From Enterobacteria phage mEp021: a stretch of 54,655 nt of DNA. Positions within the stretch are counted from its first letter, which is position 1. Each line of letters starts with the position of its first letter. The stretch is from sequence record MH706966; one strand, 5' to 3'. Position numbers and translations under genes: made by a program. Shown here piece after piece: positions 2,850 through 43,191 of this stretch. Below the pieces are notes generated by a model. It ran no database searches, had not been told where the DNA came from, and worked only from the letters and a program-made list of their open reading frames with translations.

Positions 2850-3573
2850 GGTTAGATAACGCCTCGTTTATTCTATTTGATGCAATTTCGAAATATTTTT
2901 CATCCTTTTCTATGCCGATAAAACGTCGGTTAGTATTAATGCAGGCAACGCCTGTAGTTCCGCTGCCCATAGTAAAATCGAGAACCGTTTCCCCTTCGTT
3001 AGTGTATGTCTTAATTAGGTATTCCATCAGTGCGACAGGCTTTTGTGTTGGGTGTACCTTGCCTTTCTGGTTTGCGTTACTTATCTCTATAATGCTTTTA
3101 GGGTGCTTATCCTTATAAGTCCTTAAATCACCATAATTAATTATGCGGTTTGCCTCCCCAGCAGAATATGTTTTACCCGTCCTTTCCTTTTGCGGAGTTT
3201 TTATTGGGTAATATTTGACAGCGCCTTTAGAAAAAACAACAACATCCTCATGCACCCTATAAGGTTGCCATTTGAGGACTTGCATGTTACCGCCTTTCTT
3301 CTTGTCCCATACCCAGCAATATTTAAACATGCTTATGTTGCTTGCAATTAGTGTTGTAGTGAACGGCTGACTTGCAGTCATCACAATGGCGCAATTCGGC
3401 TTAACTATGCGCTTTAATTGCTCCCACATTGGATTAAGAGGAATGACGGAATCCCATTTGCAGGCCGTTGTGCCGTAAGGCGGATCAGCCATTACCATAT
3501 CAACGCTACCGCCTGGGATAGAGTTCATGACCTCCAGACAATCACCCAACAATAATGTAACATCTTTATTCAT
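2836..3573 (-). CDS. DNA methyltransferase, N6-adenine or N4-cytosine type
   Basis: 245 aa; DPPY catalytic motif (MADPPYGT) near the N-terminus and AdoMet motif FTMGSGTTGVA near the C-terminus (motif IV before motif I). Confidence 0.75.
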   Translation of the reverse strand: MNKDVTLLLGDCLEVMNSIPGGSVDMVMADPPYGTTACKWDSVIPLNPMWEQLKRIVKPNCAIVMTASQPFTTTLIASNISMFKYCWVWDKKKGGNMQVLKWQPYRVHEDVVVFSKGAVKYYPIKTPQKERTGKTYSAGEANRIINYGDLRTYKDKHPKSIIEISNANQKGKVHPTQKPVALMEYLIKTYTNEGETVLDFTMGSGTTGVACINTNRRFIGIEKDEKYFEIASNRINEALSNHEAN

Positions 3574-7736: not shown

Positions 7737-9224
7737 TCATTGGCAGAAAACAATCTCTTTAAATGCTTTTTCTACCATGTCGAATACTTCCGGCCTGTAA
7801 TAGAAAAACTCATTGCTTCCATCAAATTTCACAGGAAAATTGATTTTATAATTACTAAAAGCCTTATGCATCGTGTTTTCTAGTTTATGTATACTTTCGG
7901 TTGGCCCTTCTAACGTTTTCACGACACACAAATCAGGGATTCTAACACCTGCTTTATGTGCGCTTTTTAATATCCGATTTCTTCGCTCGTTCTCCTTAAC
8001 ACTTACGCCGATTTTCATTTGTGTAGGTAATTCCAGATCATCAACCATGATGTAAAGTTTGCCATAATCATAACGAAAGAAACCGTATTTAGCGCATTTT
8101 TGGCAACCCCTACCGCGCTTAAGTTCTCTAGGTCTAACCGACCACTTATGATTACAAACCTTACAGCGGCATGATACTTTTTTATTTACGTTCGTTATTT
8201 CTCCCAGCACTTCAACATCAGGATTAACCTTAGCAATAGCTAAAACATGTTCTTCGTGCGTTATAATCTTCCCAGCACATTTTGGGCAACCCTTCCCGCG
8301 TTTAAGGTTGCTAGGAGTAACCGACCACTTATGATTACAAACCTTACAGCGGCATGATACTTTTTTATCTACGTTCGTTATTTCTCCCAGCACTTCAACA
8401 TCAGGATTAACCTTAGCAATAGCTAAAACATGTTCTTCGTGCGTTATAATCTTCCCAGCACATTTTGGGCAACCCTTACCGCGCTTAAGGTGGTTAGGTC
8501 TAACTGACCATTCATGATCACAAACCTTGCAGCGGCATAATACTTTTTTGTCGCCACCTGTAATTTCACCCAGCACTTCAACATCAGGATTAACCTTCGC
8601 AATGGCAGCAATTTGTTTATAATGTGATAGTCTTAGTTTTTGTGCAATTTTCACACATTTACATTTCGGGCAACCGCTCCCGTGTTTAAGGGCGTCAGGC
8701 GTAGCCGACCATACACGATCACAAATCTTGCAGCGGCATAATACTTTTGTTCTGCTATTAACAATTTTCCCCAGCACTTCAACATCAGGATTAATTCTTG
8801 AGATGGCGGCGATCTGTTCTTCGTGTGATAATCTTTTTGGCCCTTGCTTTAACATTGCGCATTTCGGGCAACCATTCCCGCGTTTAAGGTTGCTAGGAGT
8901 AACCGACCACTCATGATCACAAACCTTGCAGCGGCATAATACTTTTGTGCTGTTATTTATTATTTCCCCCAACACTTCAACATCAGGATTAATTTTAGCA
9001 ATAGCCGCAATTTGTTCTTCGTGGGATAGCCTTGCGTTCCCAGCGCATTTTGGGCAACCTTTACCGTGTTTAAGGTTGCTAGGAGTAACCGACCATTCAT
9101 GATCACAAACCTTGCAGCGGCATAATACTTTTTCCCGGCTTCCAGTAATTTCTCCCATCACTTCAACATCAGGATTAACTTTCGCAATAGCTGCAACCTG
9201 TTCTTCGTGTGTTAGCTTGCACAT
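7737..9224 (-). CDS. Protein with six tandem Zn-ribbon modules and a C-terminal GIY-YIG-like (T5orf172-type) domain
   Basis: 495 aa; six ~55-aa repeats HEEQVAAIAKVNPDVEVLGEI...C.C..C.H.W...P..L..G.GCPKC; C-terminal GKLYIMVDD...KIGVS...RRNRIL pattern; repeats 5 and 6 are near-identical at DNA level. Confidence 0.55.
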   Translation of the reverse strand: MCKLTHEEQVAAIAKVNPDVEVMGEITGSREKVLCRCKVCDHEWSVTPSNLKHGKGCPKCAGNARLSHEEQIAAIAKINPDVEVLGEIINNSTKVLCRCKVCDHEWSVTPSNLKRGNGCPKCAMLKQGPKRLSHEEQIAAISRINPDVEVLGKIVNSRTKVLCRCKICDRVWSATPDALKHGSGCPKCKCVKIAQKLRLSHYKQIAAIAKVNPDVEVLGEITGGDKKVLCRCKVCDHEWSVRPNHLKRGKGCPKCAGKIITHEEHVLAIAKVNPDVEVLGEITNVDKKVSCRCKVCNHKWSVTPSNLKRGKGCPKCAGKIITHEEHVLAIAKVNPDVEVLGEITNVNKKVSCRCKVCNHKWSVRPRELKRGRGCQKCAKYGFFRYDYGKLYIMVDDLELPTQMKIGVSVKENERRNRILKSAHKAGVRIPDLCVVKTLEGPTESIHKLENTMHKAFSNYKINFPVKFDGSNEFFYYRPEVFDMVEKAFKEIVFCQ

Positions 9225-37469: not shown

Positions 37470-37482
37470 ACCCCACCCCCGC

Positions 37483-37569
37483 TTATTTTTTGTTTTTAAG
37501 TGCCTTCAGCATTTCTTCGATAAAGTCGGCATAGTGCTCATGCTCGTTGGGTCGGTAGTAGTTTTTCAT
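37483..37569 (-). CDS. Small hydrophilic protein (28 aa), first gene of a two-gene moron operon
   Basis: MKNYYRPNEHEHYADFIEEMLKALKNKK; SD aagagga 7 nt upstream. Confidence 0.35.
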   Translation of the reverse strand: MKNYYRPNEHEHYADFIEEMLKALKNKK

Positions 37570-37725
37570 TTTCTTATCCTCTTTGCTTCCTCCGGTTAAT
37601 CCGACCTTCTAAATCCCTTTACTCTATCCCTTTCCTTTAGCCTCTTTATACAAAATGTATTCGTTGAAGTGAAGCCATTTTGTATAAAATAGAGATCAGT
37701 ATCACACTTTTTACGAGGTTAAATC

Positions 37726-40071
37726 ATGTCCACCAGTTTAGGTACAATTTATTACGAAGTTGATGCAAAAACTGGTCAACTTCTAGTCGCTCAGAGACAG
37801 GCGGATCAGGCTTTTGACAGTATCGAGCGTGGCGCAAAACGCGCTGACCGCCAGGTTAACACGCTTAAAACTTCAATCAAAGCACTATCCAGGGTTATAC
37901 ATCTGCTACTTGCTGCGGAGGCTGTGCGCCAGTTTATTGACATGGCGGAGCAAGCAAAAATGCTTCGTGTCAAAATTAAAATGCTCACAGGTGACGCAGA
38001 GGCCGCAGGACGTGTTTTTGACGGCCTGAAAAAAATATCAAAGGAAACCGGGCAAAGCCTTAAAGACACTGGCGAATTGTGGCAAGGCCTGGCTATTTCA
38101 CTAAAGAATACTTCCGCTACGGAAGGCCAATTGCTCAACCTGGTTGGCACTATTCAGAAGATGGGGGCGTTAGGAGGCGCGTCAGCGGAACAGATGTCTA
38201 ATTCTATGCGCCAGTTCCGCCAGTCTATAGACGGCGGCGTGCTGCGTGCTGAAGAGTTTAACAGCCTGTTAGAGAACACGCCGACCATCGTACAGACAAT
38301 GGCCCGCCATATGGGGTTGTCAATGGGCCAGTTCCGCGCCGAAATGCTGGACGGCAAGATCACGGCTGAAAGGATGGTTAACGCGATTCAGGCAGCTACA
38401 CAGGAAACAAACGAGAAGTTTGCACAGTTGCCGCGCACGTCCGGCAAGGCTATCAATGAGCTTAAAGTTGAGGTGATGGGGCTTGTCGAACAACTTGACG
38501 ATCTTTTCGGCATATCAGATGGCGTTGTATCAGCTATCGACTTAATAACTGGCGGCGTTGAGGGATTAGGTAAAGGCGCTAAATTCGCCGCAACCTGTTT
38601 TAATACACTCAAAACGGCTGGCAGTGAGTTCATAGACATGTTTGACGACGTGGCTGTTAAGGCTGGCGAGGTGGCGGAAGAAATCATTAGAATGGTAACG
38701 CCAATCAAGGCGCTAATGGATGGCTACAAATGGATGAAGGAGATTGTAGGAAAGCAAACAGAAGAATATAACACCAATTATGAGAAGAAATACGGTAAAA
38801 GACTTGGTAAGGGAATGCAATTTTGGGATGATTGGCAGGCCGTACTTAACCAAACAAAAGAAAACAAGGGAACCGACACCGCTGACGACGGCAAGATCAC
38901 CGGATTCGAGCCACCAGTAGATAAGCCAGGAAAACCGAAAAAAGGAAAAAAAGACAAGAAATCTGAAGCTGATCGGCTTGGTGATGAAGGTATAAAAGTG
39001 TCCGACCAGTACAACAAGGACGCCGCCGCTATGCGCAAAGCATTAGAGAACGGCAAGGCCATTGATGCTGCATTCGCCCAGGGCAAAATCACCCTCCTTG
39101 AGTACAAGGCCGCGCAAAAGGGGATAGGCAAGGAACTGAAGGACGAATTGGCACAAATCCCGGTGGAAGAATTGCAAGATAAATGGGCGCACATAGTAAG
39201 CCCAATGGATCAGCTTAAGGGCGAAATTGACCCAATCAAACAGGCGCAGAATGAGTGGGCTGTCAGAAAACAAATGCTATTAGACCTGGGAGCTACAGAA
39301 GCGCAACAGAGACAGGCGCAGTTAGAATATGAGCAACAGATCAGGGATCTGAAGTGGGAGCAATGGCAGGCGCAAAGCGACACAAACAGCCTGATTGGTG
39401 CTTGTGTTAGCGGCCTCAAGGGTGGCATGGGTAATGCGCTTACTGGCCTGTTAAACGGTACTCAATCATTAAGCGAGGTTTTTGCCAACCTGGGAAGCAG
39501 CATACTTAACACCGTAGGCAATAAACTTTCGGAAATAGCCGCTAACTGGATAGCAGATCAATTGATGATGGAAACGCAAAGCAAGGCTACACAGGCAAGT
39601 ACAGCGGCTGGCGCTGTGGCAGCGCAGGGCGAGATTGCTGCGGCAGCGGCCCCGGCAGCGGCTGCGACGGCGGCATCAACTGGCGGTAGCTGGGCGGCGG
39701 CTGGTGCTGCGGCGCTTTCTGCTATCATGTCGCTGGCAACGTCAATTTTTGGCGGCGGTCGTTATAATGGTGGTTCTGTGAATGGTGGCAGTCTGTATCG
39801 CGTAGGGGAACACGGAATACCGGAGCTATTCCAGACGAGCAACGGGCGTCAGTATATGATTCCTGGGGAAAATGGCAGGGTTATTCCTGGCCGCGATCTT
39901 TTCAGTGGTGGCAGCATCAGTATGCCTGTTAACATTACCGTTCAGACCACAAACGGGTTTAGCGAAGAGGACAGTCGCAGATTGCAAGACGCCATGAAAC
40001 GCGTTGCAATGGGAGTAATTAAAGAGCAAAGTTCAAGGCCCGGAGGTCTTATCCAACCACGAAGAAAATAA
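37726..40071 (+). CDS. Tail tape measure protein
   Basis: 781 aa; helical N-terminal two-thirds, glycine/alanine-rich segment, position in the tail module; SD gaggt. Confidence 0.85.
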   Translation: MSTSLGTIYYEVDAKTGQLLVAQRQADQAFDSIERGAKRADRQVNTLKTSIKALSRVIHLLLAAEAVRQFIDMAEQAKMLRVKIKMLTGDAEAAGRVFDGLKKISKETGQSLKDTGELWQGLAISLKNTSATEGQLLNLVGTIQKMGALGGASAEQMSNSMRQFRQSIDGGVLRAEEFNSLLENTPTIVQTMARHMGLSMGQFRAEMLDGKITAERMVNAIQAATQETNEKFAQLPRTSGKAINELKVEVMGLVEQLDDLFGISDGVVSAIDLITGGVEGLGKGAKFAATCFNTLKTAGSEFIDMFDDVAVKAGEVAEEIIRMVTPIKALMDGYKWMKEIVGKQTEEYNTNYEKKYGKRLGKGMQFWDDWQAVLNQTKENKGTDTADDGKITGFEPPVDKPGKPKKGKKDKKSEADRLGDEGIKVSDQYNKDAAAMRKALENGKAIDAAFAQGKITLLEYKAAQKGIGKELKDELAQIPVEELQDKWAHIVSPMDQLKGEIDPIKQAQNEWAVRKQMLLDLGATEAQQRQAQLEYEQQIRDLKWEQWQAQSDTNSLIGACVSGLKGGMGNALTGLLNGTQSLSEVFANLGSSILNTVGNKLSEIAANWIADQLMMETQSKATQASTAAGAVAAQGEIAAAAAPAAAATAASTGGSWAAAGAAALSAIMSLATSIFGGGRYNGGSVNGGSLYRVGEHGIPELFQTSNGRQYMIPGENGRVIPGRDLFSGGSISMPVNITVQTTNGFSEEDSRRLQDAMKRVAMGVIKEQSSRPGGLIQPRRK

Positions 40072-40126
40072 TTTATTGATTTAATCTTACGCCCGCAAGA
40101 TAATGACGTATCCTTGCGGGCTTTGC

Positions 40127-41461
40127 TTACGCGGCTTTTATAATTTCTTTATACTTATCTTCCACCATGTTAAAAACCTCTGGTCTGTAGTAGAAAAATT
40201 CGCAACTACCATCAAATTTTACTGGGAAGTTAATTTTGTAATTATTAAGGGTTTTGTGTATCGCGCCTTCTAGTTCATAGATATTTTGTGTCGGACCTTC
40301 TAATGTTTTTACGATATGCAAATCAGGAATCGTTACACCCGCTTTATGTGCGCTACTTAGTATTCTATTTCTTCGTTCGTTTTCCTTAACACTTACCCCT
40401 ACTTTCATTAGCGTTGGTACTTCCAGATCGTCAACCATGATATAAAGTTTGCCGCGTTCGTAGGATAAAAAACCCTTTTTAGCACATTTAGAACAGCCGC
40501 TACCTTCCTTAAGTTTTTGCGGCGTGGTTCGCCACTTATAACCACACACTTTACATAAACACGATACTTTGTTTTTATTCCCTGTTATTTTACCTACCAC
40601 TTTGATATTAGGGTTGATGTTGGCAATGGCTTTTACTTGCTCATCATGTGATATTCTTCGTGCTTGCGATCCTTTTCGTTTCGCACACTTCGGGCAACCA
40701 GTACCTTTTTTAAGGCTGGCTGGAGTAGTTAACCACTCATGACTGCAAGACTTACAGCGGCATAACGTTCTCGTAGTATTGTTAATAATTTTTTCTAATA
40801 CCTCAACGCTAGGACTGGTTTTCGCAATAACTGCAATTTGTTCTTCATGTGATAGTTTGGTGTGTCCGCTACATTTCGGGCAGCCAGTACCATGCTTGAT
40901 GTTGTTGGGAGTTGCTGGCCATTCATGATTGCAAATCTTACATTTGCATAATACTTTTTTTAAACTCGCAGATTAAAAGGGGTTTTATTCAATATTGCTG
41001 TTAACCTTCGCAATAGCTGCAACTTGTTCTTCATGCGTTAATCTTCTATCTGCGCATTTTGGGCAACCTTGCCCGATTTTAAGTGTTTCAGGTCTAGCCA
41101 ACCATTCATGATCACAAACTTTGCAATGGCATAATACCTTTGTTTTATTATTAATAATTACCCCTAACACCTTAATATCAGGATTAACTTTAGCAATAAT
41201 TGCAACCTGTTCTTCGTGTGGTAATGCCCGTTTTTGTGCTCTTTTTAACGCCGCACATTTAGGGCAACCAACACCGCGCTTAAGATCAGCAGGTCTACCA
41301 AACCATTCGTGATTACAAGTTTTGCAGCAGCATGATACTTTTTCCATATTCCCGGTAATTACCCCTATCACCTCGATATTGGGGTTAACTTTTGCAATAG
41401 CGGCAACTTGTTCTTCGTGTGTTAATTTTTTTGTCATAATACCGCTCCTACAATCTTCCAT
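40127..41461 (-). pseudogene. Disrupted paralog of the Zn-ribbon/GIY-YIG-like gene at 7737-9224
   Basis: A single reading frame of about 445 codons carries about five Zn-ribbon modules and an intact C-terminal GIY-YIG-like domain but is interrupted by two in-frame TAA stops (+ strand 40985-40987 and 40973-40975). Confidence 0.55.
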
Positions 41462-41547
41462 TCCGTCCTACATAACTCCTGCCGAACATTACCAACCAGA
41501 TGCTCCAGATCTCCCGCCATGTGTATTTCTCATTCTTCATACCCGCC

Positions 41548-41802
41548 TCACTTATGAGCGCCTTTTACGCCACATAACTTGTTATAAAAATGGTGCTCAA
41601 CGATTAACCAAACCCTCAGATCTTCACTGAACAGCCGCCAATCAGGATTAATGTCAAACTTCCAGCCATAACCATCGCGTAACTTTTTGGGGTTGGCCTC
41701 TTTCTTCAGGAAAGCATTTAATAAGGCTTTTCCCTTTTTGATGATCCGGTCCTGTGCGTTTTTCTGTGCTTTCAGGTTTTTACCAATCGCCACCAATTTC
41801 AT
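41548..41802 (-). CDS. Small protein (84 aa), possibly RelE/YafQ-like toxin fold
   Basis: Lysine-rich N-terminal helices then GYGWKFDINPDWRLFSEDLRVWLIVEHHFYNKL, loosely resembling the YafQ PDW-L-Y pattern from memory; SD gcggggtgg. Confidence 0.3.
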   Translation of the reverse strand: MKLVAIGKNLKAQKNAQDRIIKKGKALLNAFLKKEANPKKLRDGYGWKFDINPDWRLFSEDLRVWLIVEHHFYNKLCGVKGAHK

Positions 41803-41820
41803 AATCCACCCCGCAATCAA

Positions 41821-41976
41821 TTAGTTGACCACTTTCAGGAAGAAATCACAGTATTCATCTTCTTTTGCATTCATCATGAACTGACCGTATTTGAATGCGT
41901 CATCAAAGCCTTTTACAATCGCCACTTCCACCTGTTCGAATGCGTTGTTCAGCATTACCACTACATAGCGTTTCAT
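41821..41976 (-). CDS. Small protein (51 aa), upstream partner of the 84-aa gene
   Basis: MKRYVVVMLNNAFEQVEVAIVKGFDDAFKYGQFMMNAKEDEYCDFFLKVVN; strong SD aaaggagggg 4 nt upstream of the ATG. Confidence 0.4.
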   Translation of the reverse strand: MKRYVVVMLNNAFEQVEVAIVKGFDDAFKYGQFMMNAKEDEYCDFFLKVVN

Positions 41977-42146
41977 GATGCCCCTCCTTTGTTGGTACTG
42001 CTTTCTCTTCTTGCCTCCTATATACATCTTGTTACGTCATGTGTGAAGCCATTTTGTAAACTGGGTATAATTCTTGTGACGAAGTTCTCATTTTTCGCGT
42101 AGAAGCGCGTAAAGATGTATGCAATATGTAACTTATAGGGGGAATC

Positions 42147-42500
42147 ATGCCTGAAGTTTTCAGATGGACGCCGCAAAGAAGCTACAGCGTGACCAGGGAA
42201 CCAAATGTGTCGGTCGTTAAACTTGGTGATGGTTATGAACAGCGCCAGGCTAAAGGGATTAACACGTTGCTTGATAGCTACACCCTGGTTTTTAAAGGCA
42301 GTAGCGCAGGATGCGGTGATAGTGGGAACGTGGCGATCCAGGCAGAAGCATTCTTGAGGGCGCGCGGCGCTGTCGAGGCTTTTTACTGGTCGCCGTCTAT
42401 GGATGGTGTGCAAAGGCTTTTTGTTTGCCGTAGCTGGAGTATGACAAAGGACGGGCCTGTATACACGCTAAACGCAACATTTGAGCAAGTTGTCAGTTAG
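42147..42500 (+). CDS. M: Minor tail protein M
   Basis: 117 aa; size and position as lambda gpM, immediately before gpL-like; SD taggggga. Confidence 0.65.
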   Translation: MPEVFRWTPQRSYSVTREPNVSVVKLGDGYEQRQAKGINTLLDSYTLVFKGSSAGCGDSGNVAIQAEAFLRARGAVEAFYWSPSMDGVQRLFVCRSWSMTKDGPVYTLNATFEQVVS

Positions 42501-42697
42501 TGGGGGTTAATATGTACGGGACTTGTGTAGTGGACAAAACTGACGCTTTTACATTGTTTGACGACTACGAGATCAACGACCTTACTGTAAAGGCTGACAA
42601 TGGCGATACATGGTATCTTCATGATGTTGGTGATGGTTATGTGGGATGCAGATCCAGAGAAGGCAAGGAGGTTTTATTTTTGGTTGATGGCGTATAA
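42500..42697 (+). CDS. Hypothetical protein (65 aa)
   Basis: ORF overlapping the gpM stop. Confidence 0.35.
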   Translation: MGVNMYGTCVVDKTDAFTLFDDYEINDLTVKADNGDTWYLHDVGDGYVGCRSREGKEVLFLVDGV

Positions 42698-42876
42698 TAA
42701 CAACCCCGCTTCGCGCGGGGTTTTCTTGTCAGTAGTTAATGTACATCAAACTCATTGGGTGAGCGTGCGCCATATTATTGGCTATCGCCGCCCAGTCCCA
42801 ATCGGCAGCATGAACGCCAAATACTATCAGTCCCATTATTATTAGCGCCAAAACTTCTATTTTCATAATCTGTCAC

Positions 42877-43191
42877 CTATAAGTTATCACGCAGGTAATT
42901 AACGCCCTTATCAGTGACGAATGAATGGTTTACCTGGTTTTCATCCGTCATGATGATGAATAACTTTTCCTGTAGGTATTTCGCTTTCGGGTACAGTGTT
43001 AAACAGACCTGGTACAGTATCCCGCGCTCAATCAGCAAATCAATAAATTCGTGCTCATGATAACCGATAAGGCGGGCGGCCTGTTTCAACGTGTACACAT
43101 AGTCACCGTGATTACGCCGTGCCATGATTTTATTCTCACATATCAAAAAATAGCATGTCAGGTATAAAAGTATCGCCGCAAGAATTTCCAT
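42877..43191 (-). CDS. Hypothetical protein, possible HTH DNA-binding protein (start ambiguous)
   Basis: YTLKQAARLIGYHEHEFIDLLIERGIL HTH-like segment; alternative start at 43125. Confidence 0.4.
   Translation of the reverse strand: MEILAAILLYLTCYFLICENKIMARRNHGDYVYTLKQAARLIGYHEHEFIDLLIERGILYQVCLTLYPKAKYLQEKLFIIMTDENQVNHSFVTDKGVNYLRDNL

Follow-up and report, generated by a model that had tools for sequence, protein, structure and literature searches.

The closest described counterparts of the gene studied here are the putative phage homing endonuclease genes reported by Barth, Dunham & Seed 2023 (PMC10448857). Genes of this class combine a T5orf172 domain with repeated CapR-type zinc-finger DNA-binding domains, arranged as 'beads on a string'. 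They cluster beside essential genes, including tape measure genes, and they mark boundaries of genetic exchange (PMC10448857). A second set of published results bears on how the sequence was obtained. In SOLiD sequencing each of four colours stands for four dinucleotides, and a sequence and its complement share the same colour string (PMC4569514). In the example given in the SATRAP paper, ACTAA and TGATT are both encoded as 1230, and a single misread colour leads to a chain of translation errors (PMC4569514). Phage mEp021 was sequenced by AB SOLiD and assembled de novo with Velvet in colour space into 8 contigs, which were translated to bases, 'manually edited to remove errors' and joined by Sanger gap closure (PMC11893012). 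The genomes of its five sister phages were obtained by Illumina sequencing, so that mEp021 is the sole SOLiD member of the group (PMC11893012).

The window analysed here is the 54,655-nt genome of mEp021 (MH706966.1). Between the tape measure gene (37726-40071, plus strand) and gpM (42147-42500, plus strand) it carries a gene on the minus strand, which we refer to as the tail-module gene. In agreement with the initial annotation, translation of the minus strand of region 40127-41461 gave one frame of 445 codons, the only internal stops of which are two TAA codons spaced 12 nt apart (40985-40987 and 40973-40975, plus-strand numbering). The frame as deposited runs from an ATG at 41461 to the stop codon at 40127-40129, and the listing of open reading frames breaks it into a 158-aa ORF (40985-41461) and a 157-aa ORF (40127-40600), separated by 124 codons that are open and contain no ATG, GTG or TTG. 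GenBank likewise splits the gene in two: AXN54185.1 (158 aa), entitled 'putative zinc-ribbon domain-containing protein [Enterobacteria phage mEp021]', and AXN54184.1 (157 aa), entitled 'hypothetical protein mEp021_65', are exact matches to the two ORFs. The gene is not discussed in the paper on the phage group of mEp021 (PMC11893012). Its likely start is the ATG at 41437-41435, which matches the annotation of gene mEp013_88 of phage mEp013; a Shine-Dalgarno sequence, AGGAG (41445-41449), lies seven bases 5' of this ATG. The full coding region would then span 40127-41437 (minus strand), corresponding to 436 codons plus a stop codon, with the two TAA codons as deposited. A simple promoter scan detected no minus-strand promoter for the gene. 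At its other end, a GC-rich hairpin (40091-40121; -18.1 kcal/mol according to ViennaRNA) separates the stop codons of the tape measure gene and the tail-module gene, which converge on it. This hairpin, which is kept in mEp013, may be a bidirectional terminator; it was missed by a simple terminator scan, its loop being too long.

A motif scan identified five CxCxxC…CxxC modules in the tail-module gene, all on the minus strand: module 1 (LTHEEQ…CxCxxC…CxxC) at 41255-41425, module 2 at 41054-41224, module 3 at 40871-41041, module 4 at 40685-40855 and module 5 at 40484-40654. The two stop codons fall in module 3. The modules have diverged to the extent that Tandem Repeats Finder does not see them, and they are recognized by the Pfam models CapR (PF21817; 34.0 and 46.9 bits, cut-off 24.2) and DUF4379 (52.5 and 66.6 bits, cut-off 24.5), which score above their gathering cut-offs on either side of the stops. 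The precomputed Pfam matches on the orthologs include DUF723 (PF05265). The 3' part of the gene matches T5orf172 (PF10544) with 24.1 bits (cut-off 20). Since DUF4379, CapR and T5orf172 thus exceed their gathering cut-offs across the stops, the gene is not a chance reading frame. The C-terminal T5orf172/MUG113 domain (40130-40474, minus strand) comprises 115 residues with a confidently predicted fold (pLDDT 92.4), which is the alpha/beta fold of GIY-YIG nucleases, and PHROGs assigns the protein to the 'endonuclease' families 681 and 559. Residues Y11, K24, G26, R34, E69, H73 and E92 of the domain are invariant among 18 homologs. The second motif of the domain is MK[IV]G, which lacks the Tyr, so that GKLY…MK[IV]G stands where GIY-YIG nucleases have GIY…YIG. 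Identity between this domain and the GIY-YIG nucleases I-TevI (catalytic domain), Slx1, HIGLE and R.Eco29kI is 8-17%. The DNA-binding part differs as well, consisting of a zinc-finger array in the mEp021 gene and of a linker, a zinc finger and a helix-turn-helix in I-TevI. PADLOC matched the tail copy to no defence system, and a search of the PDB by sequence returned only a spurious match to tau.

Judged from its sequence, the tail-module gene is a real and ordinary member of the described T5orf172 class of putative homing endonuclease genes. As in the genes of PMC10448857, a terminal T5orf172 domain is combined with N-terminal 'beads-on-a-string' CxxC…CxxC modules matching CapR and DUF4379, and the gene is free-standing beside essential structural genes, including the tape measure gene. 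Also shared are the variable presence among close relatives, the variable repeat number of homologs and the occurrence of two paralogs in one genome. The host genome differs, being that of a temperate E. coli siphovirus of the mEpimmI group and not of ICP1, T5-like or Vibrio phages, and so does the best Pfam zinc-finger model, which is DUF4379 here whereas the paper names DUF723/DUF4397. By analogy with the family, the five CapR/DUF4379 treble-clef zinc fingers would form an array recognizing an extended DNA target, cleavage of genomes lacking the gene would fall to the C-terminal T5orf172 (GIY-YIG-fold) domain, and repair from a co-infecting copy would spread the gene together with adjoining tail-gene sequence.

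Orthologs of the tail-module gene are intact. Gene mEp013_88, which occupies the same position in mEp013, encodes 436 aa, and the mEp021 coding sequence is colinear, with no indels, with five further orthologs (L020-L024). One of these, E. coli prophage AASAVZ010000008.1 (L020), is colinear with mEp021 37479-43126 at 92.4% identity and contains an intact ORF of 444 aa; L022-L024 are the Illumina-derived Logan contigs SRR27315141, SRR27339741 and SRR26820292. The question raised in the initial annotation of whether related phages have an intact gene at this tail-module position is thereby answered by mEp013 and E. coli prophages. The 90%-identity protein cluster that contains the 158-aa fragment of mEp021 has 19 members; among the 16 listed, the other 15, which originate from E. 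coli prophages and metagenomes, are intact (14 of 436 aa and one of 438 aa).

A T5orf172 gene occupies the interval from the tape measure gene to gpM in several E. coli prophages as well as in mEp021 and mEp013. Phage mEp010 does not have it: homology ends at mEp021 position 40011 and resumes at 41450, with different small genes in between. No match to the tail-module gene was found in mEp044 and mEp554. Endonuclease genes and mosaic exchange seem to concentrate at this junction, in the manner of a hotspot. The G+C content of the gene (38.7%) is below that of the genome (45.8%). Some further features of this region were noted. In mEp515 the corresponding minus-strand accessory block contains an HNH endonuclease gene, mEp515_91 (41328-41834 of that genome), and the tape measure gene of this phage is 3156 nt long, as compared to 2346 nt in mEp021. 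Just upstream of the T5orf172 gene of mEp021 lies a 90-aa gene (41548-41820, minus strand) whose orthologs match Pfam ParE_like (PF24732); the two genes remain neighbours in L020, L022 and L023, which are E. coli prophages, and in Logan contig L021.

The early region of mEp021 contains an intact paralog (7737-9224, minus strand) of 495 aa, with six Zn modules and a T5orf172 domain. Its Pfam matches are the same (DUF4379, CapR and T5orf172, the latter with 22.3 bits against a cut-off of 20). The proteins of the tail copy and the paralog are 60% identical overall and 76% identical (82/108) in the C-terminal domain. The initial annotation had described the tail copy as a paralog of this gene, on the strand opposite to that of the tape measure gene and gpM between which it lies, with about five Zn-ribbon modules and a C-terminal domain of roughly 75% identity, and these statements hold. 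The repeat number is variable among homologs at the early-region position. In mEp515, the closest overall relative, a 247-aa gene (7739-8482 of that genome) with 98% identical flanks was observed in the place of the 495-aa paralog, and homologous matches in related phage contigs range from ~176 to 309 aa, which suggests that the repeat number changes quickly in this family. The published gap-closing primers 8rev and 8fwd map inside the paralog (8550-8860), which means that one SOLiD contig of only ~310 bp lies within the zinc-finger repeats. The count of six modules, the last two of which are nearly identical, depends on Sanger gap closure.

The sequence that contains the two stops sets mEp021 apart from all orthologs compared. 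On the minus strand, positions 40972-40987, which include both TAA codons, read TAAAACCCCTTTTAAT in mEp021 and ATTTTGGGGAAAATTA in L020 and L022-L024, four independent assemblies that agree with each other; the sequence in mEp013 is ATCTTGGGAAAAATTA. The mEp021 16-mer is the complement of the ortholog sequence base by base, and not its reverse complement. Complementarity is 16/16 to L020, L022, L023 and L024, 15/16 to L021 and 14/16 to mEp013, and identity is 0/16 to each of these six. The surrounding sequence is unaffected. Outside the 16-mer, L022-L024 are 97.5% identical to the mEp021 coding sequence, with identical flanks (GAA|…|CTGCGAG), and the alignment with mEp013 has zero indels and breaks down only across the 16 nt just past …AATATTGAA. 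When mEp021 was compared with L022-L024 over 1311 nt, 16 of the 17 complement-type mismatches proved to form the single run 40972-40987. By way of background, 111 kb of mEp021-relative alignments of at least 85% identity contained 1163 complement-type runs of length 1, 53 of length 2, one each of lengths 3 and 4, and none longer than 4, and runs of the same mismatch type were at most 2 long in ten Illumina-versus-Illumina ortholog pairs. Complementing 40972-40987 restores an ORF of 436 aa (…NIEILGKITASLKK…). The repaired protein reads …KVNSNIEILGKITASLKKVLCKC…, in agreement with the module consensus and with the orthologs, and the repaired stretch …KVNSNIEILGKITASLKKVLCKCKICNHEW… fits the module consensus V/I-L/I-G-x-I. 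The closest of the cluster members listed is 96.8% identical to the repaired protein.

Several rearrangements were considered as the origin of the 16-mer. An inversion does not fit, as the reverse complement of the ortholog 16-mer is TAATTTTCCCCAAAAT and mEp021 has TAAAACCCCTTTTAAT; moreover, flipping the mEp021 16-mer gives IKRGF, contrary to the module consensus. Gene conversion from a donor copy was rejected as well: elsewhere in the 54,655-nt genome there is no donor for either the aberrant 16-mer (allowing up to 2 mismatches) or the expected one (up to 3 mismatches). Nor does mis-assembly among the repeated modules or the two paralogs account for it, since at this place the remaining modules have GTGATAGGGGTAATTA, GTGTTAGGGGTAATTA and the like instead of the complement. 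Megablast against E. coli complete genomes found nothing, and a site-specific pattern search gave no match in viral contigs or metagenome contigs. Inversion, gene conversion and template switching all yield reverse complements. A base-wise complement is not the product of any mutational process, but it does arise from SOLiD colour-space decoding.

The sequences of mEp021 and its orthologs were converted to colours. At the site, the colour strings differ only by two isolated changes of value 3, one at each end of the 16-mer (indices 449 and 465 in the colour string of the coding sequence), and the 15 colours between them are unchanged with respect to L020 and L022-L024. SNPs of the ordinary kind at other sites of the gene show up as altered colours to either side of the base or bases exchanged. 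As a real substitution always alters two adjacent colours, an isolated colour change denotes a colour or phase error and not a substitution. As seen from the relatives, the stretch combines a fixed base exchange with two isolated edge colours in a genome assembled in colour space, which is the signature of a SOLiD phase error. The gap-closing primers that could be mapped (Supplementary Table S4 of the mEp021 paper) place the Sanger-checked junctions at ~8.5-8.9, 10.1-10.3, 11.8-12.0, 14.4-14.6, 33.5-34.05, 51.6-51.8 and 52.9-53.06 kb. The site, at ~40.98 kb, falls well within a SOLiD-only contig (~34044-51629); the closest Sanger-closed gap that could be mapped is about 7 kb away.

Together, these comparisons with relatives strongly indicate, with a probability of roughly 0.9, that both in-frame stops are a sequencing or assembly artefact and not biological. 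The initial annotation had mentioned a sequencing error as one alternative, and the complement pattern and the SOLiD assembly favour it. Wrong colours at both edges of the stretch, or anchoring in the wrong phase, would have caused the stretch to be decoded as its exact complement, with bases outside it being decoded correctly. The true mEp021 sequence at 40972-40987 would then be ATTTTGGGGAAAATTA, coding for ILGKI(T) as in the relatives, and the true gene would be an intact 436-aa ORF from the ATG at 41437 to the stop codon at 40127-40129. This resembles what the SATRAP paper (PMC4569514) describes: a wrong colour sets the later bases into a fixed substitution 'phase' until it is corrected, the complement is one of three possible wrong phases, and Velvet uses double encoding followed by translation to bases. 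The mEp021 case differs in that the error is deduced from relatives instead of reads and is confined to one short stretch of 16 nt.

Phase-shifted stretches elsewhere in the genome were also looked for. No second long one, that is, longer than 4 nt, was found in the comparable parts of mEp021 (versus mEp515, mEp013, mEp010 and 18 other loci), and for that reason 40972-40987 would be an isolated error, which counts against the artefact reading. The only other candidate phase errors are short, namely 3 nt at 40792-40794 and 4 nt at 3462-3465. The former (minus strand AAA, module 4) consists of three consecutive A-versus-G differences to L022-L024, two of which are also differences to mEp013, and converts the otherwise invariant Gly of V-L-G-x-I into Glu (VLEKI). 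Its colour string shows two isolated changes of value 2, one flanking the run on each side, and the run may be a second, smaller colour-phase error. Complement-type mismatch runs relative to mEp515 were seen at 3462-3465 (four in a row) and 2972-2976 (four out of five), in alignments that are otherwise 96-99% identical. Both are at the edges of divergent mosaic segments and could be real or further small decoding errors. As a separate observation, one or two single-base indels distinguish nine of the 16 published gap-closing primers from the final genome (8550-8574, 8836-8860, 10081-10105, 10293-10317, 11769-11793, 11967-11990, 33928-33952, 34044-34068 and 54325-54348), and a few others differ by one or two substitutions. 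These mismatches reflect either draft contig errors that were edited later or imperfect text of the supplement.

An artefact could also have arisen by hand, if a short stretch was typed or pasted as its complement during manual correction in Tablet. The published statement on manual editing of the assembly (PMC11893012) is in line with this, as are the primer indels, which imply that the draft was altered after primer design unless the supplement is garbled. We consider this route improbable, though the best placed of the alternatives: complement degeneracy is inherent in colour space, where two wrong colours suffice, which is the simpler cause, and the site is ~7 kb away from the nearest mapped contig end, where edits would be expected. 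Whether colours were wrongly translated to bases or a complement was pasted by a manual slip instead of a reverse complement, the stops are an artefact in both cases.

Homing endonuclease genes cycle through gain, decay and loss. The stops might accordingly be real and the tail copy of mEp021 a selfish endonuclease gene that became a pseudogene very recently, a reading to which we give little credence. It agrees with this cycle, with the presence of the stops in the deposited sequence and with the dispensability of the gene, which is absent at this position in mEp010 and mEp515 and has no match in mEp044 and mEp554. The nature of the lesion argues against it, as inversion, gene conversion and template switching give reverse complements whereas the lesion consists of 16 consecutive A<->T and C<->G exchanges at unchanged length, and the genome holds no donor for it. 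It is, moreover, the single lesion in 436 codons, and the 280 codons that follow the stops are free of any further stop or frameshift. The dN/dS values relative to mEp013 (0.14 on the upstream side of the stops, 0.17 on the downstream side and 0.086 for the T5orf172 domain) do not show the relaxed constraint of a pseudogene, and the other 15 cluster members listed are intact. The initial annotation had proposed a mobile selfish gene of which one copy is decaying. The first part stands, in that there is a second copy, a putative selfish homing endonuclease family and a variable slot; decay is not supported, because the two stops are the only lesion and lie inside an exact base-wise complement of the ortholog sequence.

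It is slightly less probable still that the stops are genuinely present in virion DNA and that the 5' part of the broken endonuclease gene yields a free two-finger CapR-like DNA-binding protein. If true, this would be a snapshot of the DNA-binding domain of a homing endonuclease being freed as a regulator, and it would require some unknown process by which DNA acquires a complement in the same orientation. Least credible of all are functional stops, in a gene that is split in a regulated way or else is read through or bypassed, so that a stand-alone two-finger CapR-like DNA-binding protein is made alongside a separate nuclease part: GenBank does annotate two genes, and the initial annotation had allowed for this, but no in-frame ATG, GTG or TTG occurs for 124 codons past the second stop, in no relative do the halves form separate genes (the other 15 cluster members listed being single ORFs), so that a split gene fails the test set in the initial annotation, and the complement pattern is irrelevant to recoding and fully explained by the sequencing chemistry.

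With the stops read as an artefact, the finding is of little biological interest in itself and is a useful correction to the public record. The deposited mEp021 sequence (MH706966.1; phage described in PMC11893012) very probably contains a colour-space error of 16 nt, as a result of which a single 436-aa gene is annotated as two, AXN54185.1 and AXN54184.1, and counts of pangenome, core genes and pseudogenes that refer to mEp021 inherit this split. The check can be used on other SOLiD-era genomes by converting sequences to colours and seeking isolated single-colour differences; where an old SOLiD assembly shows a run of mismatches that all obey the same base exchange, above all complementation, this points to a decoding error and not to biology. 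As to the gene itself, it adds an example from an E. coli temperate phage to the class of T5orf172 zinc-finger endonucleases, and it identifies the interval from the tape measure gene to gpM as an endonuclease-gene hotspot of the mEpimmI group.
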